DNA of 64,000 bases from an uncultured Lachnospiraceae bacterium (GTDB lineage: Bacteria; Bacillota; Clostridia; Lachnospirales; Lachnospiraceae), in NCBI GenBank assembly GCA_910585255.1, contig CAJUEI010000003.1, positions 2,782-66,781 on the forward strand, written 5' to 3'. The notes below the pieces were generated by a model. That model had not been told where the DNA came from. It saw nothing but the letters and a program-made list of their open reading frames with translations, and made no database searches. Shown piece after piece: positions 18,895 through 61,435 of this stretch. The position numbers and the translations under genes are program-made. The number at the start of each line of letters is the position of its first letter. The stretch's first letter is position 1.

Positions 18895-18908
18895 ATAGTA
18901 GTCAGGAC

Positions 18909-19048
18909 GCAGACAGCCTAGAGGGAATCTCTGCTGGGGCCGTTTGCACTAAGGCTTCCTCGCAGCGGGCACATAAGATGCTAAAAGACAGCATCTAAGT
19001 GCCGGCGGGAAGCAATACCCCTGCAGAGATTCCCTCTAGGCTGTCTGC
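18909..19048. repeat. ~140-nt long imperfect palindrome (a second type of hairpin element)
   Basis: GCAGACAGCCTAGAGGGAATCTCTGC (from 18909) is the reverse complement of GCAGAGATTCCCTCTAGGCTGTCTGC (ending at 19048). An inner hairpin reads GGCACATAAGATGCT...AGCATCTAAGTGCC. Confidence 0.75.
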
Positions 19049-19210
19049 TGTGTGTTCCGGGCGGTATGAAATCTTTATGAGAAGTGGAGACGTGGGATAT
19101 TTCGGGGGTAATGAAAGATAGATTGTTTTTGGTGGTTGGAAGGGAAAGGAGAAGATGCTCTTTCTATTTAAAGATAGTTTAAGAATAGTTGGGTGTGCGG
19201 AGGGTGTTTT

Positions 19211-35238: not shown

Positions 35239-35574
35239 ATGTATGATAATATAAAAAAATTGGAACAACAAATAGATGATATTGCTGTTGGATATTTATT
35301 TAGACAAGAAAGAAAGAATATAGAATTAGTAAAGAAGATTGTTCCACAAATACAAGAATTTGTTTTTTGGTTTTTAAATGGGAATAGATATGGGATAGAA
35401 GAAAAATTATACAAAGATTTGAGTAATAATTTGATTTATATTTTAGAGGATATATTGGAAGCTTTAGAACAGGGAGATAGAGTACTTTTGCATGATGCTT
35501 TAACATATGGATTGAAAGAATATTTATTATTATTTTTACAAAAGAAGGAGGATAACATAAATGAATATATATGA
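35239..35574 (+). CDS. Hypothetical 111-aa helical protein, translationally coupled to the Maf-like gene
   Basis: The ORF overlaps the next gene by 14 nt. I recognised no family. Confidence 0.4.
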   Translation: MYDNIKKLEQQIDDIAVGYLFRQERKNIELVKKIVPQIQEFVFWFLNGNRYGIEEKLYKDLSNNLIYILEDILEALEQGDRVLLHDALTYGLKEYLLLFLQKKEDNINEYI

Positions 35575-39895: not shown

Positions 39896-39934
39896 TATCT
39901 TTTAATAGTCAAATGAAGATGTAGGAGATAAAAT

Positions 39935-42431: not shown

Positions 42432-43602
42432 AGCAGAGTATCTATTTGGAGAAAAGGAGATTCAAGTAATTCCTATGATTCCATTTGAAGATCAGGTATG
42501 TGAATTTTTAGATCGATTATCAAAAGCGTTAAGAGAAGATTTAGAAGCAAAACAATACCCGGATATTATGACATTTGCATTTTGGATTAGAAAAGCAAAT
42601 ATTTTGAAATTAAAAACACTTTATCAAAAAAAAGAAGTACGAGTAGGAAAAGGGCTGATCTTTCATATCGCACCTTCTAATGTGCCGATTAATTTTGCTT
42701 ATACTTTTGTATTTGGTCTACTTTCAGGAAATTCTAATATTGTGAAAGTTTCTTCTAAAAGATTTATACAGACGGATCTAATCTGTAAAATAATGAATCA
42801 GCTTATTTTAGAGGGATTTGATTGGGTAGCTAAGAGAAATGCAATTGTTTTATATAGACAAGAGGAAGTAGAATTAACCAGAGAATTTTCTTATGCATGC
42901 GATGGAAGGGTGATTTGGGGTGGAGATCAGACGATAGCGGAGATAAGAAAAGCACCTTTACAGCCTCGTAGTGTAGAGATAACATTTGCTGATAGATATT
43001 CTTTTGGAATTATCTCAGCAAAGGCGATTTTAGATGCATCCGATAAAGAAAGAGTTATTTTAGCAAAGAATTTTTATAATGATACTTATTTAATGGATCA
43101 AAATGCATGTTCTACGCCGCATCTTATCTGTTGGATGGGAACAGAGGAAGAGGTAGAGGTAGCGAAGGAGTTGTTTTGGAAAGAAGTGTATCAGAAATCG
43201 AAGAGTTATCCATTAGAGGAAATAAAAGCAAGTGAAAAATATACAATATTTTGTGAGATGGCTGCTAATGGAGTATTATCTTCTTGGAAACGATATGATA
43301 ATTTTCTTTATGTTGGTCAATTATTGGAATTGCCAAAGGATATTTGCAGATTACGTGGAAAGTTTGGTTTATTTTATGAATATCATTTAAAAGATTGGAA
43401 AGAATTGTCTGGACATTTAGGAAAGAAAGTACAAACTTGTGCCATATATGGAATTGAGTCATCTGAAGTATCGGAGTGGATTGTAGAAAGTCATAGTATG
43501 GGAGTGGATCGGATTGTTCCATTTGGAAAAACATTGGATATGGGATTAATTTGGGATGGATATGATATAATTTATACATTTTCTCGTTGTATTGTATTAT
43601 AA
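42418..43602 (+). CDS. LuxC-like acyl-CoA/acyl-protein reductase (aldehyde-forming)
   Basis: IFHIAPSNVPINFAYTFVFGLLSGNSNIVKVSSK and NDTYLMDQNACSTPH resemble the LuxC family. I chose the ATG at 42418 behind AGGGGG. Confidence 0.65.
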   Translation: MKRGEAEYLFGEKEIQVIPMIPFEDQVCEFLDRLSKALREDLEAKQYPDIMTFAFWIRKANILKLKTLYQKKEVRVGKGLIFHIAPSNVPINFAYTFVFGLLSGNSNIVKVSSKRFIQTDLICKIMNQLILEGFDWVAKRNAIVLYRQEEVELTREFSYACDGRVIWGGDQTIAEIRKAPLQPRSVEITFADRYSFGIISAKAILDASDKERVILAKNFYNDTYLMDQNACSTPHLICWMGTEEEVEVAKELFWKEVYQKSKSYPLEEIKASEKYTIFCEMAANGVLSSWKRYDNFLYVGQLLELPKDICRLRGKFGLFYEYHLKDWKELSGHLGKKVQTCAIYGIESSEVSEWIVESHSMGVDRIVPFGKTLDMGLIWDGYDIIYTFSRCIVL

Positions 43603-46277: not shown

Positions 46278-47192
46278 ATGAGAGTAATTGTTACAGGAGC
46301 GGTAGGTTTTGTTGGAAAATGGTTAGTAGATGAGTTGTTGTATCAAAAAGATGAAATAGTAATTATTGTGAGAGATATTCAATATGTTCCTGAAAACTGG
46401 AAAAATAAGTTGCATATTATAGAAATGTCATTGCAGGATTTGGATAAGTTAGAAGAGTCATATTTTCCCTGGGAGGAAGCAGATATATTTTTTCATTTAT
46501 CATGGGATGGTACATCAGGAGAACATAGAGCAGACATTTCATTGCAGTTAGAAAATATAATAAATACTTGTAATGCTGTTGAGCTTGCTGAAAAATTGAA
46601 ATGTAAGCGATTTGTAAACGCTGGTAGTATTATGGAATATGAAGCAATGCAATATATTCCACTTGAATATGCTAAACCAGGAGAAAAGTATATATATAGT
46701 ACAGCTAAGCTTGCAGCGGATTTTATTGCAAAGATAATGACTGTTAATAAATATATGGAATATATTAATGTGGTAATTTCAAATATATATGGTCCAGGTG
46801 AGCGGTCGGAGCGATTCATTAATTCTACAATCAGAAAAATGCTAAAAAATGAAAAGATTTTTTTTACGCATGCAATGCAATTGTATGATTTTATTTATAT
46901 TAAAGATGCAGTAAAAGAAATTATATTGGCAGGAAAAAAAGGAGAAAGGAATAGTGTTTATTATATTGGGAATGGAGAACCTAAGATATTAAAATATTTT
47001 ATTTTGCAGATGAAGGAAGTATTACATAGTGAGTCAGAATTATTTTTTGGTAGTATACCATTTCAAGGTGTAATGCTTACATATAAGGAGTTTGATACGA
47101 GAAAAGTATTGAAATTAGGATTTGTACCTGAAATTACATTTGAAGAAGGAATTATATTATTACAAAAATGGATTTTAGAGGAGGAAAAATGA
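46278..47192 (+). CDS. NAD(P)-dependent sugar epimerase/reductase (extended SDR)
   Basis: VTGAVGFVGKWL Rossmann motif and YSTAK (YxxxK). Confidence 0.8.
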   Translation: MRVIVTGAVGFVGKWLVDELLYQKDEIVIIVRDIQYVPENWKNKLHIIEMSLQDLDKLEESYFPWEEADIFFHLSWDGTSGEHRADISLQLENIINTCNAVELAEKLKCKRFVNAGSIMEYEAMQYIPLEYAKPGEKYIYSTAKLAADFIAKIMTVNKYMEYINVVISNIYGPGERSERFINSTIRKMLKNEKIFFTHAMQLYDFIYIKDAVKEIILAGKKGERNSVYYIGNGEPKILKYFILQMKEVLHSESELFFGSIPFQGVMLTYKEFDTRKVLKLGFVPEITFEEGIILLQKWILEEEK

Positions 47193-49310: not shown

Positions 49311-50273
49311 GTGAATAAAATATATATTGTTATGTATCACTATGTACGCAATTTAAAAGGAAGTCGTTATCCAGAAATAAAAGGTTTGGATTATGCACTT
49401 TTTAAAAAGCAGATTCAATTTTTTTCTGAGAACTTTCATGTAATAACAATGGAAGATGTGATTCATTATTATACAGAAGGTTATCCGCTTCCACCGAATG
49501 CACTTTTATTAACATTTGATGATGGCTATATTGATAATTATACTTATGTTTGGCCTGTGCTTTTGGAATATAAAATGCAAGGTTCATTTTTTGTTCCTGC
49601 GAAAACATTTTGTGAAAATTGCTTATTGGATGTAAATAAAATTCATTTTATTTTAGCAAGTACTCCTATTGAAGAATTGTGCAGAGAGTTATATGAACAA
49701 TTAGATTATTATCGTAGCAAAGAATGGGATTATCCGTCTAATGAGGAACTTTTCCATAAGTATGCAATAGCAAATAGGTTTGATACAAAAGAAACTATTT
49801 TTTTTAAACGAATTTTACAAGCAGTTTTACCAGAAGAGCTAAGAGGGATTATATCAAGTAGTATATTTAAAAAATATGTAGGGATTTCGGAAGAAGTAAT
49901 GGCACAGGAACTTTATATGAATTATGATCAAATGAAAGTAATAAAAAGACAAGGTGGTTTTTTTGGAATTCATGGATATAATCATTATTGGATGAATCGT
50001 TTAGAAAAGAATGAATTATTAACAGATATTGATTTGGCATTAGATTCAATGAGTGAATTGGTTGATAGAAAGCAGTGGGTAATTAATTATCCATATGGAT
50101 CTTACAGTGAAAAGGTAATAGAATGGATTCAAGGGAAAGGGTGTTTGCTTGGCTTATCTACAGATGTAAAGGTAGCAGATTTGGAAAGAGATAACCAATT
50201 TGTGCTACTGAGATTAGATACAAATGATTTTCCACCTAAAAGTGAAAATTTTAAATCTTATGATATTGGATAA
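49311..50273 (+). CDS. Polysaccharide deacetylase (NodB homology, CE4)
   Basis: LLTFDDGYIDNYTYVWPVL (the DD metal/catalytic motif) and HGYNHYWM. GTG start behind AAAGGA. Confidence 0.75.
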   Translation: MNKIYIVMYHYVRNLKGSRYPEIKGLDYALFKKQIQFFSENFHVITMEDVIHYYTEGYPLPPNALLLTFDDGYIDNYTYVWPVLLEYKMQGSFFVPAKTFCENCLLDVNKIHFILASTPIEELCRELYEQLDYYRSKEWDYPSNEELFHKYAIANRFDTKETIFFKRILQAVLPEELRGIISSSIFKKYVGISEEVMAQELYMNYDQMKVIKRQGGFFGIHGYNHYWMNRLEKNELLTDIDLALDSMSELVDRKQWVINYPYGSYSEKVIEWIQGKGCLLGLSTDVKVADLERDNQFVLLRLDTNDFPPKSENFKSYDIG

Positions 50274-50357
50274 TTTTGGTTATCAATGGTTTAGATTTTA
50301 ATAGAGGATAAGATTTAATCAATAAAAATAAATAAGAATAATTTTAACATTTTTATT

Positions 50358-50396
50358 AAAAGCCTAGACTCTTTAACAGAGAGTCTAGGCTTTTAG
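50358..50396. terminator. Bidirectional rho-independent terminator between convergent operons
   Basis: AAAAGCCTAGACTCT - TTAACAG - AGAGTCTAGGCTTTT, flanked by T/A runs on both sides. Confidence 0.85.
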
Positions 50397-50455
50397 AAAA
50401 ATATTTTTATAATGTGTTATGTGAAATACAGTAACTTATTGTTAATATAATTCCA

Positions 50456-50716
50456 TTAAATTTCTATTTTATATGTTTCTTTAAGAATTTCAATTCCTTT
50501 TTCATAGGAACTGAGATCAATAATATCGTCAGTATCCATTGTAATTTCAAAACTGTCTTCTAATTCTGCAATTAAGGACATATGACCGACAGAATCCCAT
50601 TCTGGAATACTCATATACTCTAAGCCAGTTAGTTTATTTTTTTCAATTGCAAATGTTTCCATAAAAGCTGCATCATATTTTTCCCTATTAGTCATAATTA
50701 AGTTCCTCTCTTTCAA
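50456..50716 (-). CDS. Acyl/peptidyl carrier protein (ACP-1)
   Basis: 86 aa, acidic. EWDSVGHMSLIAELE contains the phosphopantetheine serine context. Confidence 0.75.
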   Translation of the reverse strand: MKERNLIMTNREKYDAAFMETFAIEKNKLTGLEYMSIPEWDSVGHMSLIAELEDSFEITMDTDDIIDLSSYEKGIEILKETYKIEI

Positions 50717-50730
50717 TTTTATATAATTAA

Positions 50731-51771
50731 TTATATTTCGTTAGCAATGGCATTTTCTTGGATTAAGGTATCTTCTTCTACATCAATTAATAGCTTTTTA
50801 CCTATAAGCCATTCAATTTTATCAGGACTTAAACCGGTGCCAGGGCGTTTTAGATCGAGATCGTCTTCTGAAAGTATTGTCCCAGCTTTTAGATTTCTTT
50901 TGCTTACGATACTTCTCCGCATTTTTAACCTTTGTTCTAATTCTTCAGAAGAAACACATCTTTCTTCACTTCCTAAGGCAATTGACACAGAGTGACAATT
51001 TTTTACTAATTGCTTCATTTCTTCTTTTTCTATTGCCATCTGGTTATCCATACCAATTTTAGAACGATCTAAAGTAAAGTGTTTTTCTATTAAGCTTGCT
51101 CCTAAAGCAATAGAGGCGGGAGCTAATTCTATTCCAAGGGAATGATCGGAAAAACCAATTGGATAATTAGGAAAATATTTTTTTAGCCCCAAAATATTTT
51201 TTAGATAAATTTTATCTTTTGTTGTTGGATAAATGGAAGTACAATGTAAAATACAAATATTATAATTATCAGCATCTTCTATTGTTTTAATTGCTGCACG
51301 TATTTCTTCTAAACTACCCATTCCAGTAGATAAAACAATAGGAGCTTTTGTTTTTGCTATATATTTAAGAAAAGGATAATTATTTAAGTCCATAGAAGCT
51401 ATCTTAATATATGGTACATCACAGTATTCTAAAAGAAAATCTACTTCTTTTTCAGAGTATGGAGTGGATGCAAATGCAATTTTTTTCTCTTTACTATATT
51501 TGGCAACTTCTAAAAGTTGTTCATTAGAGAAAGCAAATTTTTTTACAAAACGTTCTGCTATAGGGTTTTCTTTATAATAGCTTTTAGAATAAAGGGTTTT
51601 AGAGGACCAAGATTGAAATTTTACACAATCACAGCCAGCTTGTTTAATTTCATCAATCATCTTTTTAGCTGTTTCTACACTTCCATTGTGACTGGTATTT
51701 ACTTCAGCTACAATATAAGGAGAATAAGAGTTACCAATTTTTCTTTTATCTAGGAATACACATTCTGTCAT
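50731..51771 (-). CDS. NeuB-family PEP-condensing synthase (NeuB/PseI/LegI-like) with a C-terminal SAF domain
   Basis: YIVAEVNTSHNGSVETAKKMIDEIKQAGCDCVKFQSW, ILHCTSIYPT, GFSDHS, EKHFTLDR, then a SAF-like RSIVSKRNLKAGTIL...LKRPGTGL. Confidence 0.85.
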   Translation of the reverse strand: MTECVFLDKRKIGNSYSPYIVAEVNTSHNGSVETAKKMIDEIKQAGCDCVKFQSWSSKTLYSKSYYKENPIAERFVKKFAFSNEQLLEVAKYSKEKKIAFASTPYSEKEVDFLLEYCDVPYIKIASMDLNNYPFLKYIAKTKAPIVLSTGMGSLEEIRAAIKTIEDADNYNICILHCTSIYPTTKDKIYLKNILGLKKYFPNYPIGFSDHSLGIELAPASIALGASLIEKHFTLDRSKIGMDNQMAIEKEEMKQLVKNCHSVSIALGSEERCVSSEELEQRLKMRRSIVSKRNLKAGTILSEDDLDLKRPGTGLSPDKIEWLIGKKLLIDVEEDTLIQENAIANEI

Positions 51772-51788
51772 TTTTGTAACCTCCTTTC

Positions 51789-53576
51789 TTATTGATCAAT
51801 GGGTTCTATTATCATTTCTGATAGAAATAGTTCTCTATCTAAAAAAGGAGCCTGATCTTCAAGTGGTCTACGTACAATCTTTTTAGATTGGTTTCTAGCA
51901 TATGAATTACAAATATATTCTTGATTTTCTACCCCTATAATTTCACAAAGTACAGAAGAATCTAATTGCAGAATACTGGATAATTGTTCTTCTAGATTTT
52001 TACTGGTTTCTATTTTGATATAAGTCATATCGAAACATTCAGCGATTTTCTTGAAGTTAGGACAACTAACACCATTATTGGAGTCTGTACCAATTGTTCG
52101 AGTTCTGAAAAGATCTTGTTGTCTTTTTCGTATAATGGAGTATATATTATTATTAATAACAAATATTTTTATAGGAAATTGATGATAACGGATGGTTTCT
52201 AATTCTTGGAGATTCATCATAATAGAACCATCACCAATTACAGCTATTACATTTTTATTGCCAGTTGAAGCAATACCAATTGTTCCAGGAAGTGCAAATC
52301 CCATGGCACCTTGCATAGGAGAATGAATACATCTCATATTTTTTTTAAATGAGATATTAGATGGAAGAATAAGTTCCTCTAGTCCAGCATCGCATAAAAA
52401 TACAGAATTTTCAGGTAAAGTATTAGTAAAACCTTCCGCTAAACGATAAAGATCTACTTTTGATTGATTTTTATATTTATCTTCACATTTTGGAAAGATA
52501 TTTTTCCAATGGAGACATTTTTCTTGCCATTCTATTGATGTAGTTTTTATTTTTTTATCTAATATAGATGTAAGGAAATATTTTATATCTACAATCAGCA
52601 GTTTATCAATTTGAACAGATCTTTTGGAATGTTCTATTTTATCAATATCAATAACAATGATTTTAGCAGCACGTGCAAATTTTTCATATTCTTCGCCAGT
52701 TGTCATAGAAGATAAACGACATCCTAGAATAAGTAATAAATCGGAATTTTGTACAGCAAAATTTCCTGCCCTTGTTCCACATAAACTACCTACAGTTCCA
52801 ATTGATAAAGGATTTTCTAATCCATATAAATCTGTAGCTGTATGTGAATAGGTAACAGGTATTTTAGTTTTTTCTACAAATTTATAAAATAATTCTTTAG
52901 AATTTGAGGTTCTTACTCCACTGCCAATTAATAAAATAGGTCTTTTTGCAGTATTAATTGCTTGGCAGATTTCTTCTATATTTGTATCTAGGTAATTAAA
53001 ATTTTCTTTTTTTTCTTCAGGGATATATCGTTCTAGTTTTTCTGGTTCAATTCTCATATTTTGAATATTAATTGGAATGTCTATCCAAACAGGTCCTTTT
53101 CTTTCTGAATTTGCATAATAAAAAGCTTTATCTAATTCATATGCAATTTGCTCAGCAGAGGTAATCATAGTTGCATATTTTGTAATTGACTTAACAATTG
53201 GAATAATATTTGTTTCTTGTGAACCGTATGTTCGAATAGGTATTTTTGTGTAATTTACAGTTTCATTTAATATATTTTGTCCGGAAATAAAGATACAAGG
53301 TATTCCATCTTGCCAAGCTTCCAATACGCCTGTGATTGTATTCGTAGATGCACAACCTGTAGATACAAGACAAGCACCAATTTTTTCAGTATATTGAGCA
53401 TTAGCGGTTGCAGCAAAGGCGGCAGCCTGTTCATGATGCATAGAAATATTTTTAATTTTTTCAAATTTTGCTACTGCATCTGATAAATACAGTATTCCTC
53501 TTCCTGTAATAGAAAAGATATTTTTTACTCCTTCTTCATAAAGTCTTTCTATGATATAATCGGCTACTCTAATCAT
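51789..53576 (-). CDS. Thiamine-diphosphate-dependent enzyme, acetolactate-synthase-like (second copy in the window)
   Basis: HHEQAAAFAATANAQ and STGCASTNTITG in the N-domain. GDGSIMMNLQELET...INNNIY is the TPP motif. Confidence 0.85.
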   Translation of the reverse strand: MIRVADYIIERLYEEGVKNIFSITGRGILYLSDAVAKFEKIKNISMHHEQAAAFAATANAQYTEKIGACLVSTGCASTNTITGVLEAWQDGIPCIFISGQNILNETVNYTKIPIRTYGSQETNIIPIVKSITKYATMITSAEQIAYELDKAFYYANSERKGPVWIDIPINIQNMRIEPEKLERYIPEEKKENFNYLDTNIEEICQAINTAKRPILLIGSGVRTSNSKELFYKFVEKTKIPVTYSHTATDLYGLENPLSIGTVGSLCGTRAGNFAVQNSDLLLILGCRLSSMTTGEEYEKFARAAKIIVIDIDKIEHSKRSVQIDKLLIVDIKYFLTSILDKKIKTTSIEWQEKCLHWKNIFPKCEDKYKNQSKVDLYRLAEGFTNTLPENSVFLCDAGLEELILPSNISFKKNMRCIHSPMQGAMGFALPGTIGIASTGNKNVIAVIGDGSIMMNLQELETIRYHQFPIKIFVINNNIYSIIRKRQQDLFRTRTIGTDSNNGVSCPNFKKIAECFDMTYIKIETSKNLEEQLSSILQLDSSVLCEIIGVENQEYICNSYARNQSKKIVRRPLEDQAPFLDRELFLSEMIIEPIDQ

Positions 53577-53607
53577 TATATATTCCTTTCTATATGAATT
53601 AGTTTTT

Positions 53608-54084
53608 TTATTTTTTTGGTTTAAAAGAATTTAAAATATCTGGAATAGCTATTACGAATTCTGCTGAACAAGCTTCTTCATCATTAACAAAACTTTTTAC
53701 ATATCCTTTAGCAATACCTCTTCGGAAGGACAAAAGTTCTGCATAAATATCAAGTTGATCTCCTGGAATAATTTTACGTTTAAATTTTATATTATTGGCA
53801 CTTACAAAACTTGTTTTTTTCCCTTTATATTCATCCATACATAAAAAAGTCATAATAAATGTTTGGGCAAGACATTCTATCTGAATAAAACCTGGAACAT
53901 TGGGATCATCTGCGAAATGTGCAGGAAAATACCATTCATTATAACTAAAATTTTTTATACCATGTGCCGTTTTTCCTGGTTCGATTGCTATTATTTTATC
54001 AATGAATAATAGAGGATATCTGTTTTGTTGGGAATTTTGAATGTCTATTATCCCTAAATTAGTTAGAATTTCATTATTTTTCAT
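53608..54084 (-). CDS. FabZ/FabA-like hotdog-fold dehydratase (FabZ-like 1)
   Basis: NRYPLLFIDKI, FPAHFADDPNVPG (catalytic His) and IECLAQ (catalytic Glu). Confidence 0.75.
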   Translation of the reverse strand: MKNNEILTNLGIIDIQNSQQNRYPLLFIDKIIAIEPGKTAHGIKNFSYNEWYFPAHFADDPNVPGFIQIECLAQTFIMTFLCMDEYKGKKTSFVSANNIKFKRKIIPGDQLDIYAELLSFRRGIAKGYVKSFVNDEEACSAEFVIAIPDILNSFKPKK

Positions 54085-54192
54085 AGTGATTTTATCCTTT
54101 TTATTTATAATAATCTTAATTTTATTATTATGTGTATTTTTATTAAATTTTATTTTTGATATGCTTATAAAATTTTTTTAGATTTGTTAAAA

Positions 54193-54389
54193 AATATTTT
54201 ATGGTTTCGAGAAAAGTGTACTTTTTCCAAAACTTGTACTTGTATAATTTTAATATAAAATTTAAAAAAAATCAAGAGCATCATTAACCTTTTTAGCAAA
54301 AATATTGTTTAAATTTGTGTTTATAAAGAATATAATTTTATATTTTATAGTTTTGGAAAAAGTACACTTTTTACGAAACTATAAAATAT
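54193..54389. promoter_or_regulatory. 41-bp inverted repeat pair (54193-54233 and 54349-54389) bracketing a 115-bp AT-rich segment in the divergent promoter region
   Basis: The arms are reverse complements at 38/41 positions (hand alignment). Each arm contains the palindrome AAAAGT-GT-ACTTTT. Inside the bracketed segment a leftward TTGATT-17-TAAAAT promoter-like match lies at 54274-54246. Confidence 0.8.
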
Positions 54390-54453
54390 GAAAAAAGTAG
54401 TTATTTCCAAGGTTTGAAAGGATTCAAATTATAATTTCAGGAGGAAGATTAAA

Positions 54454-54699
54454 ATGACAAATTATGAAAAATATGTAGAAGCATTTAAAACAGGGCTTGG
54501 CATTGATGGAGATAAGGTAACAAAGGAGTTGACATATCAATCTGTAATGGAATGGGATTCAGTAGGGCATATGGAATTAGTTGCTGAATTGGAAGAAGTA
54601 TTTAACATTTCTATGGATACGGATGATATTGTTGACTTTAATTCATTTGAGGCAGGAATAAAGATCCTTAAAAAATATAATATAAAGATTGAGGAATAA
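54454..54699 (+). CDS. Acyl/peptidyl carrier protein (ACP-2), paralogue of ACP-1
   Basis: 81 aa. EWDSVGHMELVAELEEVF...MDTDDIVDF is closely parallel to the 50456-50716 product. RBS GGAGGAAG. Confidence 0.75.
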   Translation: MTNYEKYVEAFKTGLGIDGDKVTKELTYQSVMEWDSVGHMELVAELEEVFNISMDTDDIVDFNSFEAGIKILKKYNIKIEE

Positions 54700-54705
54700 A
54701 CAGAG

Positions 54706-55446
54706 ATGATTAAAGATAAGTATGCTGTTGTAACAGGAACAAGCAGAGGAATTGGGCGTGCAGTAGCAGAAAAATTAGCACAGTGTGGGGCTGATCTATT
54801 TGTGTGTGCAAGAACCAGAACAGATGAATTTGAAGAGTGGGTAACACAACTTCAGATTCAGACAAATAGAAAAATTATGTCTGTTTATTTTGATTTACAG
54901 GATGAAAATCAGATAAAAGAAGCATTTTTACAGATTAAAAAGGCGTCTGTTCCTATTGATATTTTAGTAAATGTAGCAGGCTGTGTGTATAGTGCAAATT
55001 TTCAAATGACCGGAATAAGTAAAATGAAGGAATTATTTGCAATTAATTATTTTAACCAAATACAGTTTACGCAATATATTTTAAAGCTTATGTTAAAACA
55101 ACATAAAGGAAGTATTGTAAATATTGCATCAAGTGGCGGAATAGATGGAAATCCAGGCAGAACTGCTTATAATGCTACAAAGGCATCCATTATTTCTACT
55201 ACTAGAACAATGGCAAAAGAATTGGGTAAAAATGGAATTCGAGTAAATGCTATTGCTCCAGGATTAATTGATACAGATATGGCAAGAAATTATACTCCCG
55301 ATTCTATTATGAAACTTGAATTAGAAAATACTTGTATGGGACGTATAGGAAAAGCAGAGGAAGTTGCAAATGTGGTAGAATTTCTTGCATCTGATGCAGC
55401 ATCTTATGTAACAGGACAGGTATGGCGTGTGGACGGAGGAATGTAG
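54706..55446 (+). CDS. Short-chain dehydrogenase, 3-oxoacyl-ACP reductase (FabG)-like
   Basis: VVTGTSRGIGRAVA, NVAG, S...YNATK catalytic residues and PGLIDTDM. Confidence 0.85.
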   Translation: MIKDKYAVVTGTSRGIGRAVAEKLAQCGADLFVCARTRTDEFEEWVTQLQIQTNRKIMSVYFDLQDENQIKEAFLQIKKASVPIDILVNVAGCVYSANFQMTGISKMKELFAINYFNQIQFTQYILKLMLKQHKGSIVNIASSGGIDGNPGRTAYNATKASIISTTRTMAKELGKNGIRVNAIAPGLIDTDMARNYTPDSIMKLELENTCMGRIGKAEEVANVVEFLASDAASYVTGQVWRVDGGM

Positions 55447-55448
55447 TT

Positions 55449-56303
55449 TTGGATGAGAAAACGATCAATAAGATAAGTGAATTTGCTTTTCATATGAGAA
55501 AGCATGCTCTAACTATGTCATATGCATCTGGGAATCATGCAGTTCATTTTGGTGGTGGTATGTCTGTAATTGATATTTTGGCAGTTTTATATGCAGAGAT
55601 ATTAAAATTGGATAGGGAGAATCCTGTTTGGGAAGACAGAGATAGATTTATTATGAGTAAAGGTCATGGTGTAATTGGATATTATGCGGCATTAGCAGAA
55701 GTTGGTTATATCCCTTTAGAAGAGCTGAAAAAATTTGAACAAGAGAATTCTTATTTAATGGGTCATCCTGTTTATACTCCTAAATATGGAATCGAATTTA
55801 CAAACGGAAGCCTTGGTATGGGAGTTTCCCTTGGAATAGGAACAGCATTGTCAGCTAAAAAGAAAGGAAAAAACTATAAAACTTATATATTAATCGGTGA
55901 TGGAGAAGCAGATGAAGGTTCCATATGGGAAGCTGCTATGTCTGCAGTTCAGTTTCAGTTAGATAATTTATGTGTGATTATAGATCGGAATCGTCTACAA
56001 CTTGGCGGGGATACAGAAGAAATTATGGCACATGGTGATTTAAGAAAGAAATATGAGATATTTGGATGGAATTCTTATGAAGTGAATGGGCATAATGTGA
56101 AAGAATTGTGTCATGTATTTCATGAAATACCAGTAAATAAAAAACCATCAATTATTATTGCTAATACGATAAAAGGAAAAGGATTTCATTTTTCAGAAAA
56201 TAATAATTCCTGGCATCATGCAGTAATGACAGAATCACAATATGAAGCAGCATTAAAAGAGCTGGAGGATAGCTATTATGGAAATAACAGCAAAAAATGT
56301 TAA
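55449..56303 (+). CDS. Split transketolase, N-terminal (TPP-binding) subunit
   Basis: HFGGGMSVIDILAVLY, RDRFIMSKGHG and GDGEADEGSIWEA. The likely start is TTG 55449, 9 nt after GGAGG; the track ORF begins at 55422. Confidence 0.8.
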   Translation: MDEKTINKISEFAFHMRKHALTMSYASGNHAVHFGGGMSVIDILAVLYAEILKLDRENPVWEDRDRFIMSKGHGVIGYYAALAEVGYIPLEELKKFEQENSYLMGHPVYTPKYGIEFTNGSLGMGVSLGIGTALSAKKKGKNYKTYILIGDGEADEGSIWEAAMSAVQFQLDNLCVIIDRNRLQLGGDTEEIMAHGDLRKKYEIFGWNSYEVNGHNVKELCHVFHEIPVNKKPSIIIANTIKGKGFHFSENNNSWHHAVMTESQYEAALKELEDSYYGNNSKKC

Positions 56304-57243
56304 AAAATGGTCTACGGTAGGAGCACGACCTACATTTGGAATGACTATGGTGGAATTAGCGAAGACAAATCCAAATATGATAGTACTTACTGCAGATGTA
56401 TCTACTTCAGCAGGATTAGAACGTTATAAAAAGATGTTTCCAGAGCAATTTATTGATGTGGGTATTGCAGAACAAAATATGATGGGAATTGCGACAGCTC
56501 TTTCAAAAGAAGGATATTGTGTGGTTACAACAACATTTGCACCATTTCAATCTATGAGGTGTTTAGAGCAGATTCGAGTAAATCAAGGATATATGGGTCT
56601 GCCTGTTATTATGGTTGGACTTTCAAGCGGATTATATCATTGTTATTTAGGAAATACACACTGTTGTTTTGAAGATGCAGCTATTTTACGCTCTATTCCT
56701 AATATTGCAGTTGTGACACCTGCAGATGGTGCTGAGATTGTAAAAACATTTGAATATGCTGTTAATTATCATAAATCAATATATGTTCGTTTGATTGAGG
56801 GAAAAAATCTTCCAATTATATATAAGGAAGACTTTTCATTTTCAATAGGAAAAGCAAATATTTTAAGAGAAGGACAGGATATTGTAATATTGGCAAATGG
56901 TACTATGGTGGCTCAGGCTTTAACAGCAGCAGATATTTTACAAGAAAGGGGTATATCCTGTAAAGTTATTGATTTTCATACGATAAAACCATTAGATACA
57001 GAGTTATTGGATTCTGTTATAGATTATCCATTATTAATTACCATAGAAGAACATAGCGTAATTGGAGGATTAGGTTCCGCTGTAGCAGAGTATATGATAC
57101 AAAAGAGAAGAAAACCAAGGCAGCTTTTCATGGGAATTCAAGATTTTTATCCACATTCTAGTGACTATGAGACCGTGTTAAAGCAGTGTGGATTGACGGC
57201 AAAGCAGATTGCAGAAAAAATAGTAAGCGAGATAGGTGAGTAA
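56278..57243 (+). CDS. Split transketolase, C-terminal (pyrimidine-binding) subunit
   Basis: FIDVGIAEQNMMGIATALS, TFAPF, and the C-terminal domain IDFHTIKPLD. Confidence 0.8.
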   Translation: MEITAKNVKKWSTVGARPTFGMTMVELAKTNPNMIVLTADVSTSAGLERYKKMFPEQFIDVGIAEQNMMGIATALSKEGYCVVTTTFAPFQSMRCLEQIRVNQGYMGLPVIMVGLSSGLYHCYLGNTHCCFEDAAILRSIPNIAVVTPADGAEIVKTFEYAVNYHKSIYVRLIEGKNLPIIYKEDFSFSIGKANILREGQDIVILANGTMVAQALTAADILQERGISCKVIDFHTIKPLDTELLDSVIDYPLLITIEEHSVIGGLGSAVAEYMIQKRRKPRQLFMGIQDFYPHSSDYETVLKQCGLTAKQIAEKIVSEIGE

Positions 57244-57247
57244 AAAT

Positions 57248-58276
57248 ATGGGTTACGTAGATAAAAAAAGAGTGCTTCAAAAACTTCACAATTTTCATAA
57301 GGCTGTAAAAGAAAATGGCGGGAAAATTGGAACAGCACCAAGAATTATTGATTTAAGTTATGATAATGCATGTAATTTTAAATGTCAGCATTGTTTTACA
57401 AAAGCACCAGAAGGAATTAATACATTAAAACATATGCCAATGGAAATGATAACGAAATTAGCGGATGAAGCAGATACCTTAGGATTTTATGAGTTTGATT
57501 TACAGGGAGGAGAATTATTGATTCGTCCTGAACAATTTTTTGATTTGGTAAAAGCAGTAGGAGCAGAAAGATTTTATATTTATTTAACAACGAATGGGTA
57601 TTTTCTAGATCAAAATATGGCACATCGATTAGCTCAGGCAGGAATTGACAGGGTATCTGTCAGCATTGATGGCTTAGATGCAAAAGAACATGATTCTTTT
57701 CGAGGAAAAAGTGGAGCATTTGATAGGGCAATTCATGCATTAAAGTATGTAAAAGAAGAAGGAATGGAACCTTTTATGAATATTACAATAGGTCATTACA
57801 ATGCCTTCTCAAAAGAATTAGAAGAACAACTTGCTTATTCCTATGAAAATGGTTTTAAATCAATTTTAAACGCAGCTGTTCCGGCTGGATGCTGGAAAAA
57901 TAATTATGATATTATGCTGACAGAGGAAGATACAAAACATATTGAACAGTTGAGAAAAAAGTATCCCAATATGATAAGGGATATATGGGATCCTTTTGAT
58001 CGGAAACAAGAAAAAATATTGGGATGTAATGCAGGAAATATTTTATACATTACTCCTTGGGGAGACGTTTTGCCATGTCCATTTATTCATATAAAATTAG
58101 GAAATATTTATGAAATGAGTTTAGAAGAGATTGTAAATTATACATTTTCATTGGATGCGTTTTCTGAATATTCGGATAAATGTTTAGCCGGGGAAGACAA
58201 AGATTTTGTGAAAAAATATATGAGTGGAGATATATCAACTCAAAATCCTGTAAGTGCGGCAGAAATTTTTAGATAA
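57248..58276 (+). CDS. Radical SAM enzyme with a SPASM/twitch-like C-terminal Cys cluster
   Basis: CNFKCQHC (CxxxCxxC) near the N-terminus. The C-terminus has GCNAG...PWGDVLPCPF. I chose the ATG at 57248 behind AGGTGAG. Confidence 0.8.
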   Translation: MGYVDKKRVLQKLHNFHKAVKENGGKIGTAPRIIDLSYDNACNFKCQHCFTKAPEGINTLKHMPMEMITKLADEADTLGFYEFDLQGGELLIRPEQFFDLVKAVGAERFYIYLTTNGYFLDQNMAHRLAQAGIDRVSVSIDGLDAKEHDSFRGKSGAFDRAIHALKYVKEEGMEPFMNITIGHYNAFSKELEEQLAYSYENGFKSILNAAVPAGCWKNNYDIMLTEEDTKHIEQLRKKYPNMIRDIWDPFDRKQEKILGCNAGNILYITPWGDVLPCPFIHIKLGNIYEMSLEEIVNYTFSLDAFSEYSDKCLAGEDKDFVKKYMSGDISTQNPVSAAEIFR

Positions 58277-58291
58277 GTAGGAGGAAATGGT

Positions 58292-58765
58292 ATGGAGGAA
58301 AAGTTGAGTTTGGATATTGTTCAGATTCAGGAATATGAAGCGAATCGTTATCCATATTTATTAATTGATAAAGTAACAGAAATTGTTCCGGGAAAGTATG
58401 CAAAGGGATATAAAAATCTTACATTTAATGAATGGTTTTTTCCCTGTCATTTTGAAGGGTGTCCGAATATGCCAGGGATGCTTCAAATAGAAGCATTATC
58501 TCATGTATTTATTTTATTATTTCTAACATTACCTGGAAATAAAGGAAAAATTACTAATATTCTAGGGGCAAATAATTTAAAATTTTATCAAAGGGTATTA
58601 CCAGGAGATAGATTAGAGATAGAAGCAGAATTGAATTCATGGAAACGTGGAATTGGAATTGGACCTGCACGGGGATATGTAGATGGAAAATTGGTATGTG
58701 AAGCAGAATTTAAAATTTGTATCCCAGAAATTTTACAGCAATATACACCTAAAAGTAATAAATAG
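58292..58765 (+). CDS. FabZ/FabA-like hotdog-fold dehydratase (FabZ-like 2)
   Basis: NRYPYLLIDKV, FPCHFEGCPNMPG and IEALSH. The C-terminus parallels FabZ-like 1. Confidence 0.75.
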   Translation: MEEKLSLDIVQIQEYEANRYPYLLIDKVTEIVPGKYAKGYKNLTFNEWFFPCHFEGCPNMPGMLQIEALSHVFILLFLTLPGNKGKITNILGANNLKFYQRVLPGDRLEIEAELNSWKRGIGIGPARGYVDGKLVCEAEFKICIPEILQQYTPKSNK

Positions 58766-58773
58766 TAAGGGAA

Positions 58774-59934
58774 ATGGTATTGTTATATGAAGTAATGATT
58801 AGAGAGGATGGGAATACGGTGTTAGAATTATCAGAAATAACTTTTTCAATGGATAAAACGCAAAGTTATATTATTTATGGACCAGGTGAAAATGGAAGAA
58901 TGTTAAAGCGGGTGCTAGATATATTAAATCAAAAAGTTTCTTGCTTTATTTGTAGTACTGGACATAAGAAAGTAACTGAAATAGATGGAATTCCAGTATT
59001 TGAATTGTCAGAGTATTTAAATTCTAAAGAAAAGAATTTGGACAAAATCTTAATGACTGTATGTGGGGGGGTAGACTCTATTTTAGAGGGGTTGAAGAGG
59101 CAACTGGAAAATGTGATTTGCCAAATTAATTCATCACAAGATATTTGTAAAGTATATGAATATTTTTATAGAAATTATTTTTTACAAAGAGGGGTTGATT
59201 TGAGCGGAGATTTTATAAAGCTAAAGGAAATGGAATTTATTAATCCGTTTAAAGCAGAACTATCTTATTCATTGGCTTTTTATATGTCGTGTGGGGATAT
59301 TATTCTTCCAACTATATATAAGGATTTATCTTGTAGTTGGGAGGGATCATATGAAGTATCTCCTGTTCTGTTGCAGGAAAATGATATTGTTATAGATTGT
59401 GGAAGCAATATGGGACTTTTTTCAATTATAGCAGCTAATCGATGTGCAAAATCATATGCATTTGAATGTGTGCCATCTACTTATCATTATATCAATCAAA
59501 TTTGTAAAAAATACAATAACATAGAATTGGTAAAGAAAGCGATAGGAGCATTTGTAGGTAAGGTTAGATTTTCTATGGATGAGGATCTTAATTGTAATAA
59601 TCGGATTGTATGGGAGGATGGAGAAATTGGACATAATCCAGTAAAATTTGGTGCTCCTGAAAACTTTCAATTAGTTGATATGATAACAATAGATGAATTT
59701 GTAAAAGAATATAAATTAGATAAAGTAGATTTTATAAAAGCTGATATTGAAGGGGCAGAGCGAGATATGCTTAGAGGGGCACAAGAGACTTTGAGAAAAT
59801 ATTCTCCTAAATTGGCTATATGTGAATATCATATGCTAGATGATCCGGAAGTGCTTGAAAAGATTATATTGGATGCAAATCCAAATTATGTTGTTTTTCA
59901 TAAATATAAAAAATTATATGCTTATGTACCTTAA
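58774..59934 (+). CDS. FkbM-family methyltransferase (second copy) with an N-terminal extension
   Basis: VIDCGSNMGLFS (SAM motif I) and VDFIKADIEGAERDML. Confidence 0.7.
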   Translation: MVLLYEVMIREDGNTVLELSEITFSMDKTQSYIIYGPGENGRMLKRVLDILNQKVSCFICSTGHKKVTEIDGIPVFELSEYLNSKEKNLDKILMTVCGGVDSILEGLKRQLENVICQINSSQDICKVYEYFYRNYFLQRGVDLSGDFIKLKEMEFINPFKAELSYSLAFYMSCGDIILPTIYKDLSCSWEGSYEVSPVLLQENDIVIDCGSNMGLFSIIAANRCAKSYAFECVPSTYHYINQICKKYNNIELVKKAIGAFVGKVRFSMDEDLNCNNRIVWEDGEIGHNPVKFGAPENFQLVDMITIDEFVKEYKLDKVDFIKADIEGAERDMLRGAQETLRKYSPKLAICEYHMLDDPEVLEKIILDANPNYVVFHKYKKLYAYVP

Positions 59935-60009
59935 GATTAGGATAAGCTGTTTTGATTTTGTGGTTGTATAAAAAGTTTATAAAAATTGGTATATTAAAGG
60001 AAATTATAA

Positions 60010-60953
60010 TGATGAAAGAAATTCAAGATAAAATTAAGAGAATTTGTTCTATGCTTCAAATTGATATTCCTATTTTACAAGGGGCAATGGCTTATATTGC
60101 TAATTATAAATTGGCGGCAGCAGTTTCTGAATATGGTGGATTAGGAATTCTTGCAGCAGGTGGATTGAAATCAGAGCAGCTAGAATATGAAATTAATGAA
60201 TTAAAGAAGTGTACTAAAAAAAGTTATGCAGTTAATATTGCATTAAAAAGTGATAATGTAGAAGAGATTATTTGTATTTTAAAAGATCAGAAAGTGCCTA
60301 TTGTTGTTACAGGAGCGGGAAATCCTGAAAAATATATTTCTGAATTAAAGGGATATGGAGCGAAAGTGATTCCTGTAGTTGCTTCTGTAGCATTGGCAAA
60401 AAGAATGGCTAGATATGGTGCGGACGCAGTAATAGCTGAAGGAAGTGAATCAGGTGGTCATATTGGAAATACAAATACTATGTGTTTAATACCGCAAGTT
60501 GTAGATGCAGTAGATATTCCTGTTATAGCAGCTGGTGGAATCGCTGATGGGCGTGGAGCAGCTGCTTCTTTTATTCTTGGAGCTTGTGCCGTTCAGATGG
60601 GAACACGGTTTCTTGTATCAAGTGAAAGTCCAGCTCATAAAAATTACAAGGAATTACTTTTAAGGGCAAAAGATATTTCAACTGTTGTATTAAATACTAC
60701 ACAAAATGATCAGGATAATATTAGGGCAGTAAAGAGTTTATTGACGGGACAATATTTAGAGGCAGAATTTCGTGGTAGGGAAAATCCAGGATGGATGTTA
60801 AAAGATGCTTTAAAAAAAGCAGCTAAGAATGGAGACAGCAGTCAAGGTCTTTTTATGGCAGGACAATGTGCGGGTTTGATAAAAGAGGAAATGTCAGTTG
60901 AAGAAATTTTAAAACAAGTATGGGGAGATGTTTGTAAATATTTAGAATTATAA
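60010..60953 (+). CDS. FMN-dependent enoyl-ACP reductase II (FabK) / nitronate monooxygenase family protein
   Basis: PILQGAMAYIANYKLAAAVSEYGGLGILAAG, DAVIAEGSESGGHIG and IAAGGIADGRG. I chose the ATG at 60010. Confidence 0.75.
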
Positions 60954-60997
60954 GTGTTTGATTAATAGATAAAAAATAGTTTAAGTTGGGAGAAAAG

Positions 60998-61435
60998 ATG
61001 GAGGAGATAAAATTAGATATAGAGGGAATTAAAAAATATATAAAAATTAGATATCCTGTTTTAATGCTAGATGGAGCAACAGTAATTCCTGGTGTTAGTG
61101 CAGAAGGATTTAAAATATTAGATGGAAAAGAGGAATTTTGGAAAGGACATTATCCAGAATATCCTATTATGCCTGGAACTTATCAATTAGAAGCATTGGC
61201 ACAGCTTTTTTCATTGAGTTTTTTGGTTTTAAATGATTATAGTGAGATAATTCCTAAATTGGTTGGGTTTGAGAAAGTACGATTTTATAAAGAAGTAAAA
61301 CCAGGAGAAAAAAATCATAGCTTAATAATGTCAGCAAAATTACTTTCCTTTAAGCATAATGTTGCAAAAGGAGAAGCAAAAGGAATGGTTAATGGAGAGA
61401 TTGTATGTAGTGCAGAAATTAAGACCTTTTTATAG
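60998..61435 (+). CDS. FabZ/FabA-like hotdog-fold dehydratase (FabZ-like 3, most divergent)
   Basis: IRYPVLMLD, GHYPEYPIMPG and LEALAQ. I chose the ATG at 60998 behind GGGAGAAAAG. Confidence 0.65.
   Translation: MEEIKLDIEGIKKYIKIRYPVLMLDGATVIPGVSAEGFKILDGKEEFWKGHYPEYPIMPGTYQLEALAQLFSLSFLVLNDYSEIIPKLVGFEKVRFYKEVKPGEKNHSLIMSAKLLSFKHNVAKGEAKGMVNGEIVCSAEIKTFL

Follow-up and report, generated by a model that had tools for sequence, protein, structure and literature searches.

A NeuB-like synthase of a separate clade lies in a widespread carrier-protein gene cassette within a Lachnospiraceae flagellin glycosylation island

A minus-strand operon with a NeuB-like synthase

We analyzed a 64,000-nucleotide stretch of DNA from an uncultured Lachnospiraceae bacterium (GenBank assembly GCA_910585255.1, contig CAJUEI010000003.1, positions 2,782 to 66,781 of the forward strand; hereafter the window) and, within it, a minus-strand operon at 50456-54084 that includes a gene for a member of the NeuB family of phosphoenolpyruvate (PEP)-condensing synthases. 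An earlier reading of the letters without database searches (the sequence-only reading) had described four genes here, encoding a FabZ-like dehydratase, a thiamine pyrophosphate (TPP) enzyme, a NeuB-family synthase and an acyl carrier protein (ACP), and had called them the only minus-strand operon of the window. All four genes lie where that reading placed them, with strong family assignments, and the listing of open reading frames (ORFs) confirms that they make up the sole real minus-strand unit. The GC skew falls to about zero across 50-54 kb, as expected of an inverted block, and its sign is lost nowhere else in the surrounding island.

The first gene of the unit, FabZ1 (53608-54084, minus strand), encodes a FabZ-like 3-hydroxyacyl-ACP dehydratase (PF07977, E 5e-19) that scores 114.1 bits against the NF000582 cut-off of 113, and 110.5 bits against TIGR01750, below its cut-off of 155.15. 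The FabZ-type histidine (..PAHF..) and glutamate (..QIECLAQ..) can be read in its translation, so that it combines the hotdog domain with the catalytic residues that define FabZ dehydratases. It is followed by a 595-aa thiamine diphosphate (ThDP)-dependent enzyme (51789-53576, minus strand) with three TPP-enzyme domains (E 1e-29 to 1e-32), by the 346-aa NeuB-like synthase (50731-51771, minus strand), which carries the NeuB (PF03102) and SAF (PF08666) domains, and by the small acyl carrier protein ACP1 (50456-50716, minus strand). Database matches to ACP1 are weak, and it is 56-57% identical to a second carrier protein, ACP2 (54454-54699), which matches PF00550; the serine motif DSVGH is common to both. 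The true start of ACP1 is most likely the ATG at 50695, behind the ribosome-binding site AGAGAGGA, giving a protein of 79 aa.

The four genes are separated by gaps of only 14-35 nt. A hairpin with a perfect 16-bp stem (50357-50395) lies 3' of ACP1, between the convergent ACP1 and deacetylase genes; the 71-nt stretch 50340-50410 folds with a dG of -28.5 kcal/mol (z-score -8.85 against shuffled sequences), and the hairpin is a probable bidirectional terminator, which a consensus terminator scan missed because its T-run is short. At the other end, 369 bp without an ORF (54085-54453) separate FabZ1 from the divergent ACP2 gene and presumably hold the promoters of both units; promoter-like hexamers occur there on both strands, at a frequency no higher than in shuffled sequence.

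The synthase belongs to a clade of its own

The NeuB-like synthase has the domain pair that defines the family, with PF03102 over residues 38-270 (E 1.8e-74) and PF08666 over residues 285-341 (E 8.6e-11). It falls below the NCBIfam equivalog cut-offs for both NeuB_NnaB (TIGR03569, 319.6 against 399.65 bits) and PseI (TIGR03586, 261.8 against 340.25 bits). Relatives were found in 203 genomes in a scan of one genome per species, among Clostridia, Bacteroidota, Spirochaetota, Elusimicrobiota, Nitrospira, Melainabacteria, Margulisbacteria and all proteobacterial classes, with more than 10 phyla represented; furthermore, metagenomes hold more than 100 protein clusters that are 61-68% identical to the synthase. 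Identity to the homologues that lie in the gene cassette described below is 52-68% across phyla, against about 35% to canonical NeuB. One relative locus is 100% identical to the window and comes from a metagenome-assembled genome labelled 'uncultured Clostridia bacterium' (isolate MGBC122997). A homologue search seeded with a spirochaete NeuB-like member returned no named Treponema protein, but brought up the Pectobacterium brasiliense locus described below.

In a neighbour-joining tree, built without bootstrap and with no characterized LegI sequence among its members, all cassette synthases group as a single clade, and N. meningitidis NeuB, PseI (8h2c) and the canonical NeuBs found at four of the related loci (L004, L015, L053 and L060) fall outside it. 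The window synthase does not cluster in this tree with either characterized enzyme. Residues E25, K53, Q55, K129, H215, E234, H236, D247 and R314 of N. meningitidis NeuB, which we take to be its metal, PEP and catalytic residues, align with E23, K51, Q53, K123, H210, E229, H231, D242 and R309 of the window synthase; all nine are identical in the two enzymes and invariant in the clade alignment, which suggests that the synthase is chemically competent. Aligned positions nearby differ (G27N, I28T, N29S, H57W, E134D, N184S, and M-N-Q at P246-I248-V249), and those among them that contact the substrate are presumed from the published structure.

The NeuB-like gene travels with a conserved cassette

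The genomic context of this clade was examined by fetching 80 loci from the 203 carriers and mapping the window proteins onto them by blastp; neighbours were counted within +/-10 kb in the 49 non-redundant loci that have at least 8 kb on both sides. A pattern first visible in the neighbourhoods of three unrelated NeuB-like homologues proved to be general. An AMP-forming ligase is present in all 49 loci, a LuxE-type acyl-protein synthetase, a LuxC-type acyl-thioester reductase and an ACP in 47 each, and FabZ and the ThDP enzyme in 43 each, with FabZ directly 5' of the ThDP gene in nearly all related loci. The commonest gene adjacency is AMP-ligase-LuxE-LuxC. A canonical NeuB is found at four of the 49 loci, a cytidine monophosphate (CMP)-transferase at three and an Epimerase_2 gene at one, counts in which 10-kb flanks miss nonulosonate genes farther off, as the window itself shows. 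Within those flanks, a nonulosonate neighbourhood (2-epimerase/hydrolase and CMP-transferase) is not a regular partner of the NeuB-like gene.

The window carries the cassette in two parts. The genes for a 346-aa tandem-GNAT protein, the ligase, LuxE and LuxC lie on the plus strand at 38.9-43.6 kb, and those for FabZ, the ThDP enzyme, the NeuB-like synthase and ACP are inverted at 50.5-54.1 kb. The unit described by the sequence-only reading thus consists of real genes and is half of the cassette only, the other half lying at 38855-43602. At three related loci (L080, L032 and L033) the genes FabG-TKN-TKC-ThDP-NeuB-like form one co-directional operon, preceded by the ACP gene in L080 and L032, so the divergent plus-strand genes of the window belong to the same system.

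A minority variant has a FabG-like reductase in place of FabZ and the ThDP enzyme (L017, L018, L019, L030, L061, L069, L084 and L089). Its members are scattered within the NeuB-like clade of the neighbour-joining tree, which suggests that a single intermediate is handled either by FabG or by ThDP/FabZ. In five well-flanked loci the NeuB-like gene is present without a ThDP enzyme, and a sixth (L083) has only pseudogene fragments of the latter.

Sugar and acyl-transfer genes recur around the cassette. DegT-family proteins are neighbours in 35 of the 49 loci, and 48 of 51 such proteins have the catalytic lysine, which identifies them as aminotransferases; that they might be E1/ColD-type 3-dehydrases, which would favour a branched sugar, is ruled out for the same 48. 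At least one of four candidate transferases is found in 40 loci: a GNAT protein in 16 (directly 3' of the NeuB-like gene in L055 and L041), a hexapeptide acyltransferase in 13, a 242-aa protein in seven and the 346-aa tandem-GNAT in four. The 242-aa protein stands in the place of the 346-aa protein and has a marginal GNAT match (E 0.44); the two have no sequence similarity to each other. Loci from Chromobacterium and Rhizobium have RmlA/B/C, a sugar C-methyltransferase, DegT and an O-methyltransferase on the flanks of the cassette, and a GNAT gene directly 3' of the NeuB-like one. At three loci (L004-L006) the cassette lies beside a nonulosonate pathway that is complete and includes a second NeuB, and the cassette of L015 also adjoins nonulosonate genes.

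The cassette is also found in a cultured plant pathogen, Pectobacterium brasiliense (GCA_040224195.1, 4028-15390; L096), where it adjoins fliA/fliZ. The order there is DegT, methyltransferase, PglD-like acyltransferase, ACP, FabZ, ThDP enzyme, NeuB-like synthase, metallo-beta-lactamase-fold protein, ligase, LuxE and LuxC, and the NCBI name of the synthase is 'N-acetylneuraminate synthase family protein'. Further cultured carriers are Chromobacterium aquaticum DSM 19852, Desulfobacter vibrioformis DSM 8776, Mitsuokella sp. W9106 and Helicobacter labetoulli.

A legionaminic-acid-type pathway, canonical NeuB included, follows shortly after the window

A tblastn search of the whole 64-kb window with canonical NeuB, NeuC-type epimerase, CMP-transferase, nucleotidyltransferase, DegT aminotransferase and hexapeptide acetyltransferase as queries returned only the NeuB-like gene, at 35% identity. 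This bears out the statement of the sequence-only reading that the window holds no other nonulosonate genes; the absence of a pathway that it implied was an artefact of the window's edge. The region past the window was read from a locus (L090) on contig CARLBU010000011.1 (GCA_949012915.1; 79,325 bp), found through the last gene of the window (62169-63764); positions in this locus equal window positions minus 52168. Six genes there, 3.2-9.8 kb past the window end (14999-21596 of the locus, equivalent to window positions from 67.2 kb to 73.8 kb or beyond, as the locus stops within the last gene), encode a NeuD/PglB-family acetyltransferase (188 bits, cut-off 161), a canonical NeuB (TIGR03569, 511.7 bits, cut-off 399.65), a NeuC-type 2-epimerase (471 bits, cut-off 236), a PseF-like cytidylyltransferase (175 bits, below its cut-off of 206), a LegB 4,6-dehydratase (524 bits, cut-off 475) and a LegC-family aminotransferase (436 bits, cut-off 420). 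By these family assignments they make up the whole of a legionaminic-acid-type pathway, synthase included. Between island and pathway lie an AAA-ATPase/PD-(D/E)XK gene (62169-63764), an integrase, a 330-aa gene of unknown function and a methyltransferase; upstream of the window start there are housekeeping genes only, and no nonulosonate genes.

The canonical NeuB of this pathway is encoded 16 kb from the NeuB-like gene, and the enzyme inside the window is probably not the cell's synthase for a sialic-acid-like sugar. The sequence-only reading had held that the operon would be an ordinary nonulosonate step if a complete pathway lay just outside the window and the synthase clustered tightly with characterized enzymes. 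The pathway does lie there; the synthase does not cluster with characterized NeuB or PseI, and this separation, together with the second, canonical NeuB of the genome, argues against an ordinary nonulosonate step.

The ThDP enzyme resembles YerE-type carboligases

The ThDP enzyme of the operon had been labelled 'ALS-like', that is, similar to acetolactate synthase. Among solved structures, its best full-length relatives are JanthE (8rph, 336 bits) and 5ahk (246 bits), followed by plant and bacterial acetolactate synthases at 216 bits or less; the JanthE match spans the full length and includes the C-terminal PLEDxxPF tail. We take 5ahk, which was deposited as acetolactate synthase II, to be PpYerE. 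The enzyme falls below every acetolactate-synthase equivalog cut-off (best TIGR00118, 334.3 against 538.35 bits), and its gene is flanked by FabZ and the NeuB-like gene, not by ilv genes. On these comparisons it is better described as YerE-like. The glutamate of an HHEQ motif and the GDG..NN ThDP motif are present, the GDG being canonical where JanthE has CDG. JanthE was ruled out as the orthologue of the cassette ThDP enzymes, as it is 31-37% identical to every one of them and to the paralogue described next alike (31% to the window enzyme).

A second YerE-like ThDP enzyme of 663 aa is encoded at 5896-7887 (plus strand), in a cell-wall polysaccharide cluster of higher GC content, and is 34% identical to the first. 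The gene for a short-chain dehydrogenase/reductase (SDR, 7877-8842) overlaps its end and is followed by a GtrB-like family 2 glycosyltransferase (8829-9782); the trio is conserved in three related loci (L093-L095). The ThDP paralogue and SDR (5896-8842) look like a YerE/YerF-type branched-sugar pair, and the SDR is 35% identical to one of the island (46278-47192). Two YerE-like ThDP genes, one of them within the cassette, are also found in each of four beta- or alphaproteobacterial loci (L053, L060, L066 and L074). In the first three, the second gene adjoins a His-type (E1/ColD-like) DegT-family 3-dehydrase, and the two have the look of a genuine branched-sugar module next to the acyl cassette; in L074 the second gene lies at the contig edge and the His-type dehydrase was not seen.

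YerE-like enzymes attach acyl branches to keto sugars, and one of them, ErwE, requires 4-hydroxy-2-oxo acids (PMC9306805); JanthE takes 4-hydroxy-2-oxovalerate as donor, and its physiological role is unknown (PMC12188165).

The operon is embedded in a flagellin glycosylation island

The region from 28 to 64 kb has a GC content of 26-33%, against 36-46% in the preceding polysaccharide and housekeeping region (1-28 kb), which suggests horizontal acquisition. The island runs from FliD, FlgN and two flagellins through a Maf/MptE-like gene, an FkbM gene, the 346-aa protein, the AMP-ligase, LuxE and LuxC to a family 1 glycosyltransferase, two sugar SDRs, RmlC (bona fide at 208 bits against a cut-off of 156), a family 2 glycosyltransferase, a polysaccharide deacetylase, the minus-strand unit and the divergent set that begins with ACP2. 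The Maf/MptE-like flagellin glycosyltransferase (35561-37420, plus strand; PF01973, E 1.5e-40; weak PseD-domain match) lies next to the flagellin genes (30703-33732 and 33953-35161, plus strand) and has a 58% identical orthologue at a related locus (L007), which there adjoins flagellin and the cassette. The first flagellin reaches 1009 aa: its N- and C-terminal flagellin domains are normal, and about 780 aa are inserted between them. Its neighbour is an ordinary flagellin of 402 aa. The Maf/MptE-like gene and the cassette half at 38855-43602 are to be added to the description given by the sequence-only reading, as is the legionaminic-acid-type pathway, which lay outside its data.

The 346-aa protein that heads this half (38855-39895, plus strand) had been taken as hypothetical. 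It has no sequence match in Pfam, NCBIfam or the PDB, and only 162 homologues, all unnamed. An AlphaFold2 model (mean predicted local distance difference test score 92.5; predicted template modelling score 0.90) was compared with known structures using Foldseek, which placed tandem GNATs on top (2ozg at E 4e-11, N-myristoyltransferases, Eis2 and MAB_4324) with a probability of 1.0, at template modelling scores of only about 0.4-0.55 and identities of 10-14%. From this model, the protein is predicted to be a tandem-GNAT N-acyltransferase. It is embedded in the cassette in relatives, and in the well-flanked loci it occurs always with the deacetylase (four of four) and never with DegT; the deacetylase, likewise, always accompanies the tandem-GNAT and never a DegT aminotransferase. 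In the window this polysaccharide-deacetylase-family protein (49311-50273, plus strand; PF01522, E 1e-16) has orthologues of 54-65% identity in Firmicute loci (L007, L020 and L080) and a weak, 18% identical match in L011.

The 474-aa AMP-forming ligase (39935-41359, plus strand; PF00501, E 2e-40) is the presumed loader of ACP. Among solved structures it comes closest to o-succinylbenzoate-CoA and oxalate-CoA ligases, in weak matches of 87-89 bits that are too distant for its substrate to be read from them. The genes for the 359-aa LuxE-type synthetase (41352-42431, plus strand; PF04443, E 2e-51) and the 404-aa, aldehyde-forming LuxC-type reductase (42388-43602, plus strand; PF05893, E 1e-27) overlap by 44 nt. 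Like the enzymes of the LuxCDE fatty-acid reductase, they pair a LuxE bearing a C-terminal acyl-carrying cysteine with LuxC. In contrast to that system, both fall below the equivalog level (64.8 against 550 bits for LuxE and 30.4 against 750 for LuxC), and those ORFs of the 28-64 kb region that were scanned gave no Pfam match to LuxD or luciferase. The acyl-carrying arm of LuxE has the motif TRxxKGCxLS with Cys364 (PMC9157457), and the C-terminus of the window protein, ...EVRGCSDTYEKR (..RGCSD..), keeps its Gly-Cys.

Downstream of the divergent intergenic region, the plus strand encodes, by Pfam and NCBIfam, ACP2 (54454-54699), a FabG-like reductase (54706-55446) and a split transketolase (55422-56303 and 56278-57243). 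The FabG-like protein is 45-46% identical to the FabG of five of the loci that lack ThDP and FabZ (L017, L019, L030, L069 and L084). A radical SAM/SPASM protein, FabZ2, an FkbM methyltransferase, a FabK-like enoyl reductase (TIGR03151, 369 bits against a cut-off of 453) and FabZ3 follow at 57236-61435 (plus strand; Pfam/NCBIfam). These last genes may extend the cassette system, a tentative assignment since none of them was found in the related loci by the blastp map. The stretch 54454-61435 amounts to a fatty-acid-synthase-like set (ACP, FabG, two further FabZ paralogues and a FabK-like reductase) without a ketosynthase, which was found in none of the ORFs scanned. The only enzymes of the island that form C-C bonds are the NeuB-like synthase, the ThDP enzyme and the transketolase.

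Discussion

We propose, as a reading with about an even chance of being right, that the four genes are half of a widespread seven-gene cassette (ACP, AMP-ligase, LuxE, LuxC, FabZ, YerE-like ThDP enzyme and NeuB-like synthase) that builds an unusual carrier-bound acyl group for attachment, through an amide bond, to an amino sugar in the flagellin glycan; the acceptor in this genome is probably a sugar of the legionaminic-acid type. The steps are drawn from family chemistry and gene co-occurrence. LuxE would adenylate a small carboxylic acid and LuxC would reduce it to an aldehyde, a supply route that the Gly-Cys kept in the C-terminal acyl arm of LuxE appears to support. The NeuB-like enzyme would condense this non-sugar aldehyde with PEP to a 4-hydroxy-2-oxo (3-deoxy-2-ulosonic) acid, on whose 2-oxo group the ThDP enzyme would work, either decarboxylating the acid as an acyl-anion donor or using it as an acceptor in the manner of acetolactate synthase; FabZ would then take off the resulting beta-hydroxyl, and in lineages without ThDP and FabZ a FabG-like reductase would reduce the 2-oxo group instead. 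The AMP-ligase would load the acid onto ACP, the deacetylase would free the sugar amine, the tandem-GNAT would transfer the acyl group, and Maf with the glycosyltransferases would place the glycan on flagellin. As judged from gene content, the DegT, GNAT, hexapeptide and tandem-GNAT/deacetylase partners point to N-acylation. The flagellin of T. denticola offers a chemical analogy, and only that: its nonulosonate is acylated with a 2-methoxy-4,5,6-trihydroxyhexanoyl group (PMC13439194). This acyl group amounts to 2-O-methyl-3-deoxyhexonoyl, the pattern that would be expected of PEP plus a C3 aldehyde, reduction of the 2-oxo group and O-methylation. The N-acyl group of the T. denticola sugar is a 3-deoxy-2-oxygenated acid, such as PEP or pyruvate and an aldehyde would yield in this way, and the window has FkbM methyltransferases and FabG; the T. 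denticola sugar is of the pseudaminic type, whereas the sugar here would be of the legionaminic type. The sequence-only reading had offered an acyl-decorated nonulosonate or the condensation of PEP with a non-sugar aldehyde as alternatives; these fare well in part, as the distinct clade, the linkage to LuxE/LuxC, ligase and ACP, and the presence of Maf, deacetylase and tandem-GNAT would fit both at once.

Several observations weigh against this proposal. Glycan loci of every kind commonly contain DegT aminotransferases and acetyltransferases, which are weak evidence on their own. Non-oxidative ThDP decarboxylation yields an aldehyde, not an acid or thioester, so a route to a FabZ substrate would need an extra oxidation or an unprecedented transfer. 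The two adenylating enzymes would fit an ACP-tethered dicarboxylic acid at least equally well, the Aeromonas-type cassette needs no NeuB-like gene in order to work (PMC7874193, PMC4875605), and the RmlC and two SDRs of the window, one of them 35% identical to the SDR of the ThDP paralogue, suit a branched-sugar role.

That last role belongs to an explanation of the erwiniose/caryophyllose type, which we regard as unlikely, although it ranks first among the alternatives. Here LuxE/LuxC would supply the aldehyde, the NeuB-like enzyme would stand in for a pyruvate aldolase, the ThDP enzyme would couple the chain to the keto group of a nucleoside diphosphate (NDP)-4-keto-6-deoxyhexose and an SDR would reduce the side-chain ketone, leaving a long C-branched sugar in the flagellin glycan. 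For the ThDP step no other explanation has as good a published precedent. The best solved relatives of the enzyme are YerE-like, and the erwiniose scheme, with the acylating aldehyde dehydrogenase ErwJ, the aldolase ErwI, the ThDP enzyme ErwE and the reductase ErwF, follows the same logic (PMC9306805; Steitz et al. 2022): an aldehyde-forming acyl reductase, addition of a C3 unit to give a 4-hydroxy-2-oxo acid, and a YerE-like ThDP enzyme. RmlC and the two sugar SDRs would find a place in it, but these SDRs are not conserved cassette partners. The cassette has a PEP-dependent NeuB-family enzyme for the aldolase and LuxE/LuxC for ErwJ, and adds ACP, AMP-ligase, FabZ and embedded GNAT-type transferases, which would have no role in a branched-sugar route though they are conserved as well as the ThDP enzyme; the latter, moreover, is missing from the five well-flanked loci noted above that have the NeuB-like gene. 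The sugar partners, finally, are mostly aminotransferases, not 3,6-dideoxy-4-keto sugar genes, and the His-type dehydrase that would make a YerE-type acceptor is seen in three loci only (L053, L060 and L066), in each beside a YerE-like gene separate from that of the cassette. For the window itself the gene content points both ways: tblastn found no DegT-family gene there, while RmlC and the 35%-identical SDR are present.

Less probable again is a tethered dicarboxylate, in which the ligase would load a dicarboxylic acid onto ACP, LuxE/LuxC would reduce the distal carboxyl, the NeuB-like enzyme would add PEP to the tethered aldehyde and the ThDP enzyme or FabG would work on the new 2-oxo-acid end, so that the chain ends in a keto-acid or sugar-acid-like group. 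LuxE/LuxC-type reduction of a tethered distal carboxyl has reportedly been proposed for the tetronate of V. cholerae O1. This scheme would account for the two adenylating enzymes, for AMP-ligase-LuxE-LuxC as the commonest adjacency and for the cassettes of Aeromonas and enterobacteria that have ACP, FabG, ligase, LuxE and LuxC without a NeuB-like gene (PMC7874193, PMC4875605), and the best solved relatives of the ligase, weak matches though they are, activate dicarboxylic acids. It is harder to reconcile with FabZ, whose 3-hydroxyacyl-ACP substrate would arise only from a tethered acid of malonate length, with the lack of precedent for a NeuB-type enzyme acting on a protein-bound aldehyde, and with the T. 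denticola acyl group, which is linked via the PEP-derived carboxyl and not the distal one. More doubtful still is that the NeuB-like, YerE-like and FabZ enzymes form a ketosynthase-independent chain-extension module re-primed by LuxE/LuxC: aldehyde and PEP would give a 4-hydroxy-2-oxo acid, loss of CO2 a 3-hydroxyacyl-ACP, dehydration an enoyl-ACP, and reduction to the aldehyde would open the next round. Such a module would explain why the island has two ACPs, a ketoreductase, three dehydratases, an enoyl reductase and no ketosynthase, and would amount to non-Claisen, PEP-driven chain growth for polyol, enoyl or sugar-acid-like glycan tails. The least probable explanation in our judgement is a second nonulosonate or ulosonic acid synthase, condensing PEP with a hexosamine-type sugar to a second sialic-acid-like sugar that the ACP genes merely decorate. 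C. jejuni has three NeuB paralogues, and the full NeuB and SAF architecture, the catalytic residues, the Maf transferase and legionaminic-acid-type pathway on the same contig, and the nonulosonate genes adjoining the cassette in L004-L006 and L015 would all be in keeping with such a synthase. It would leave the tight LuxE/LuxC linkage unexplained, and speaking against it are the two failed equivalog cut-offs and separate clade, the CMP-transferase found within 10 kb at only three of the 49 loci, and the Rhizobium, Chromobacterium and Novosphingobium loci, which tie the cassette to genes for deoxythymidine diphosphate (dTDP)-6-deoxy-amino sugars (RmlA/B/C, C-methyltransferase and DegT).

The proposed acyl-group cassette thus shares parts with several known systems. 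With NeuB, LegI and PseI (N. meningitidis NeuB, 1xuu; PseI, 8h2c) the window synthase has in common its fold, with a NeuB TIM barrel and SAF domain, the aligned metal, PEP and catalytic residues and the expected conversion of PEP and an aldehyde to a 3-deoxy-2-ulosonic acid; it differs in its identity of about 35%, its scores below both cut-offs, its clade, and its neighbours, which are LuxE/LuxC, ligase, ACP, FabZ and the ThDP enzyme instead of a 2-epimerase and CMP-transferase. Aeromonas group II, enterobacteria and V. cholerae O1 (RfbN, tetronate pathway) likewise have the ligase-LuxE-LuxC-ACP core in loci for flagellin or O-antigen. In the Aeromonas and enterobacterial flagellin islands it has been noted as 'fatty-acid-like' genes of unknown role and, by the papers' descriptions, comes without a NeuB-like or ThDP gene and with FabZ in one strain only (PMC7874193, PMC4875605). 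In the literature searched, no description of the extended NeuB-like/ThDP/FabZ/LuxCE/ACP cassette was found. What would be new is not this core but the apparent recruitment of a NeuB-family enzyme into carrier-protein synthesis of acyl groups for glycans.

NeuB-family enzymes are treated as markers of sialic-acid-like sugars and are annotated so automatically. If the proposal is true, many 'N-acetylneuraminate synthase' annotations are misleading, as the clade occurs in at least 203 species of more than 10 phyla and would apparently act on a non-sugar aldehyde in a carrier-protein pathway. It would also account for the 'fatty-acid-like' LuxC/LuxE/ACP genes that Aeromonas, Pectobacterium and other bacteria have in their flagellin and O-antigen islands, and would place YerE-like enzymes, JanthE among them, in a physiological context. 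Enzymes that condense PEP with an aldehyde and then carry out ThDP carboligation would be useful biocatalysts, and cultured carriers, including Pectobacterium brasiliense, make a tractable test system. Acyl groups on the sugars of flagellin and O-antigen shape antigenicity, phage recognition and immune evasion.

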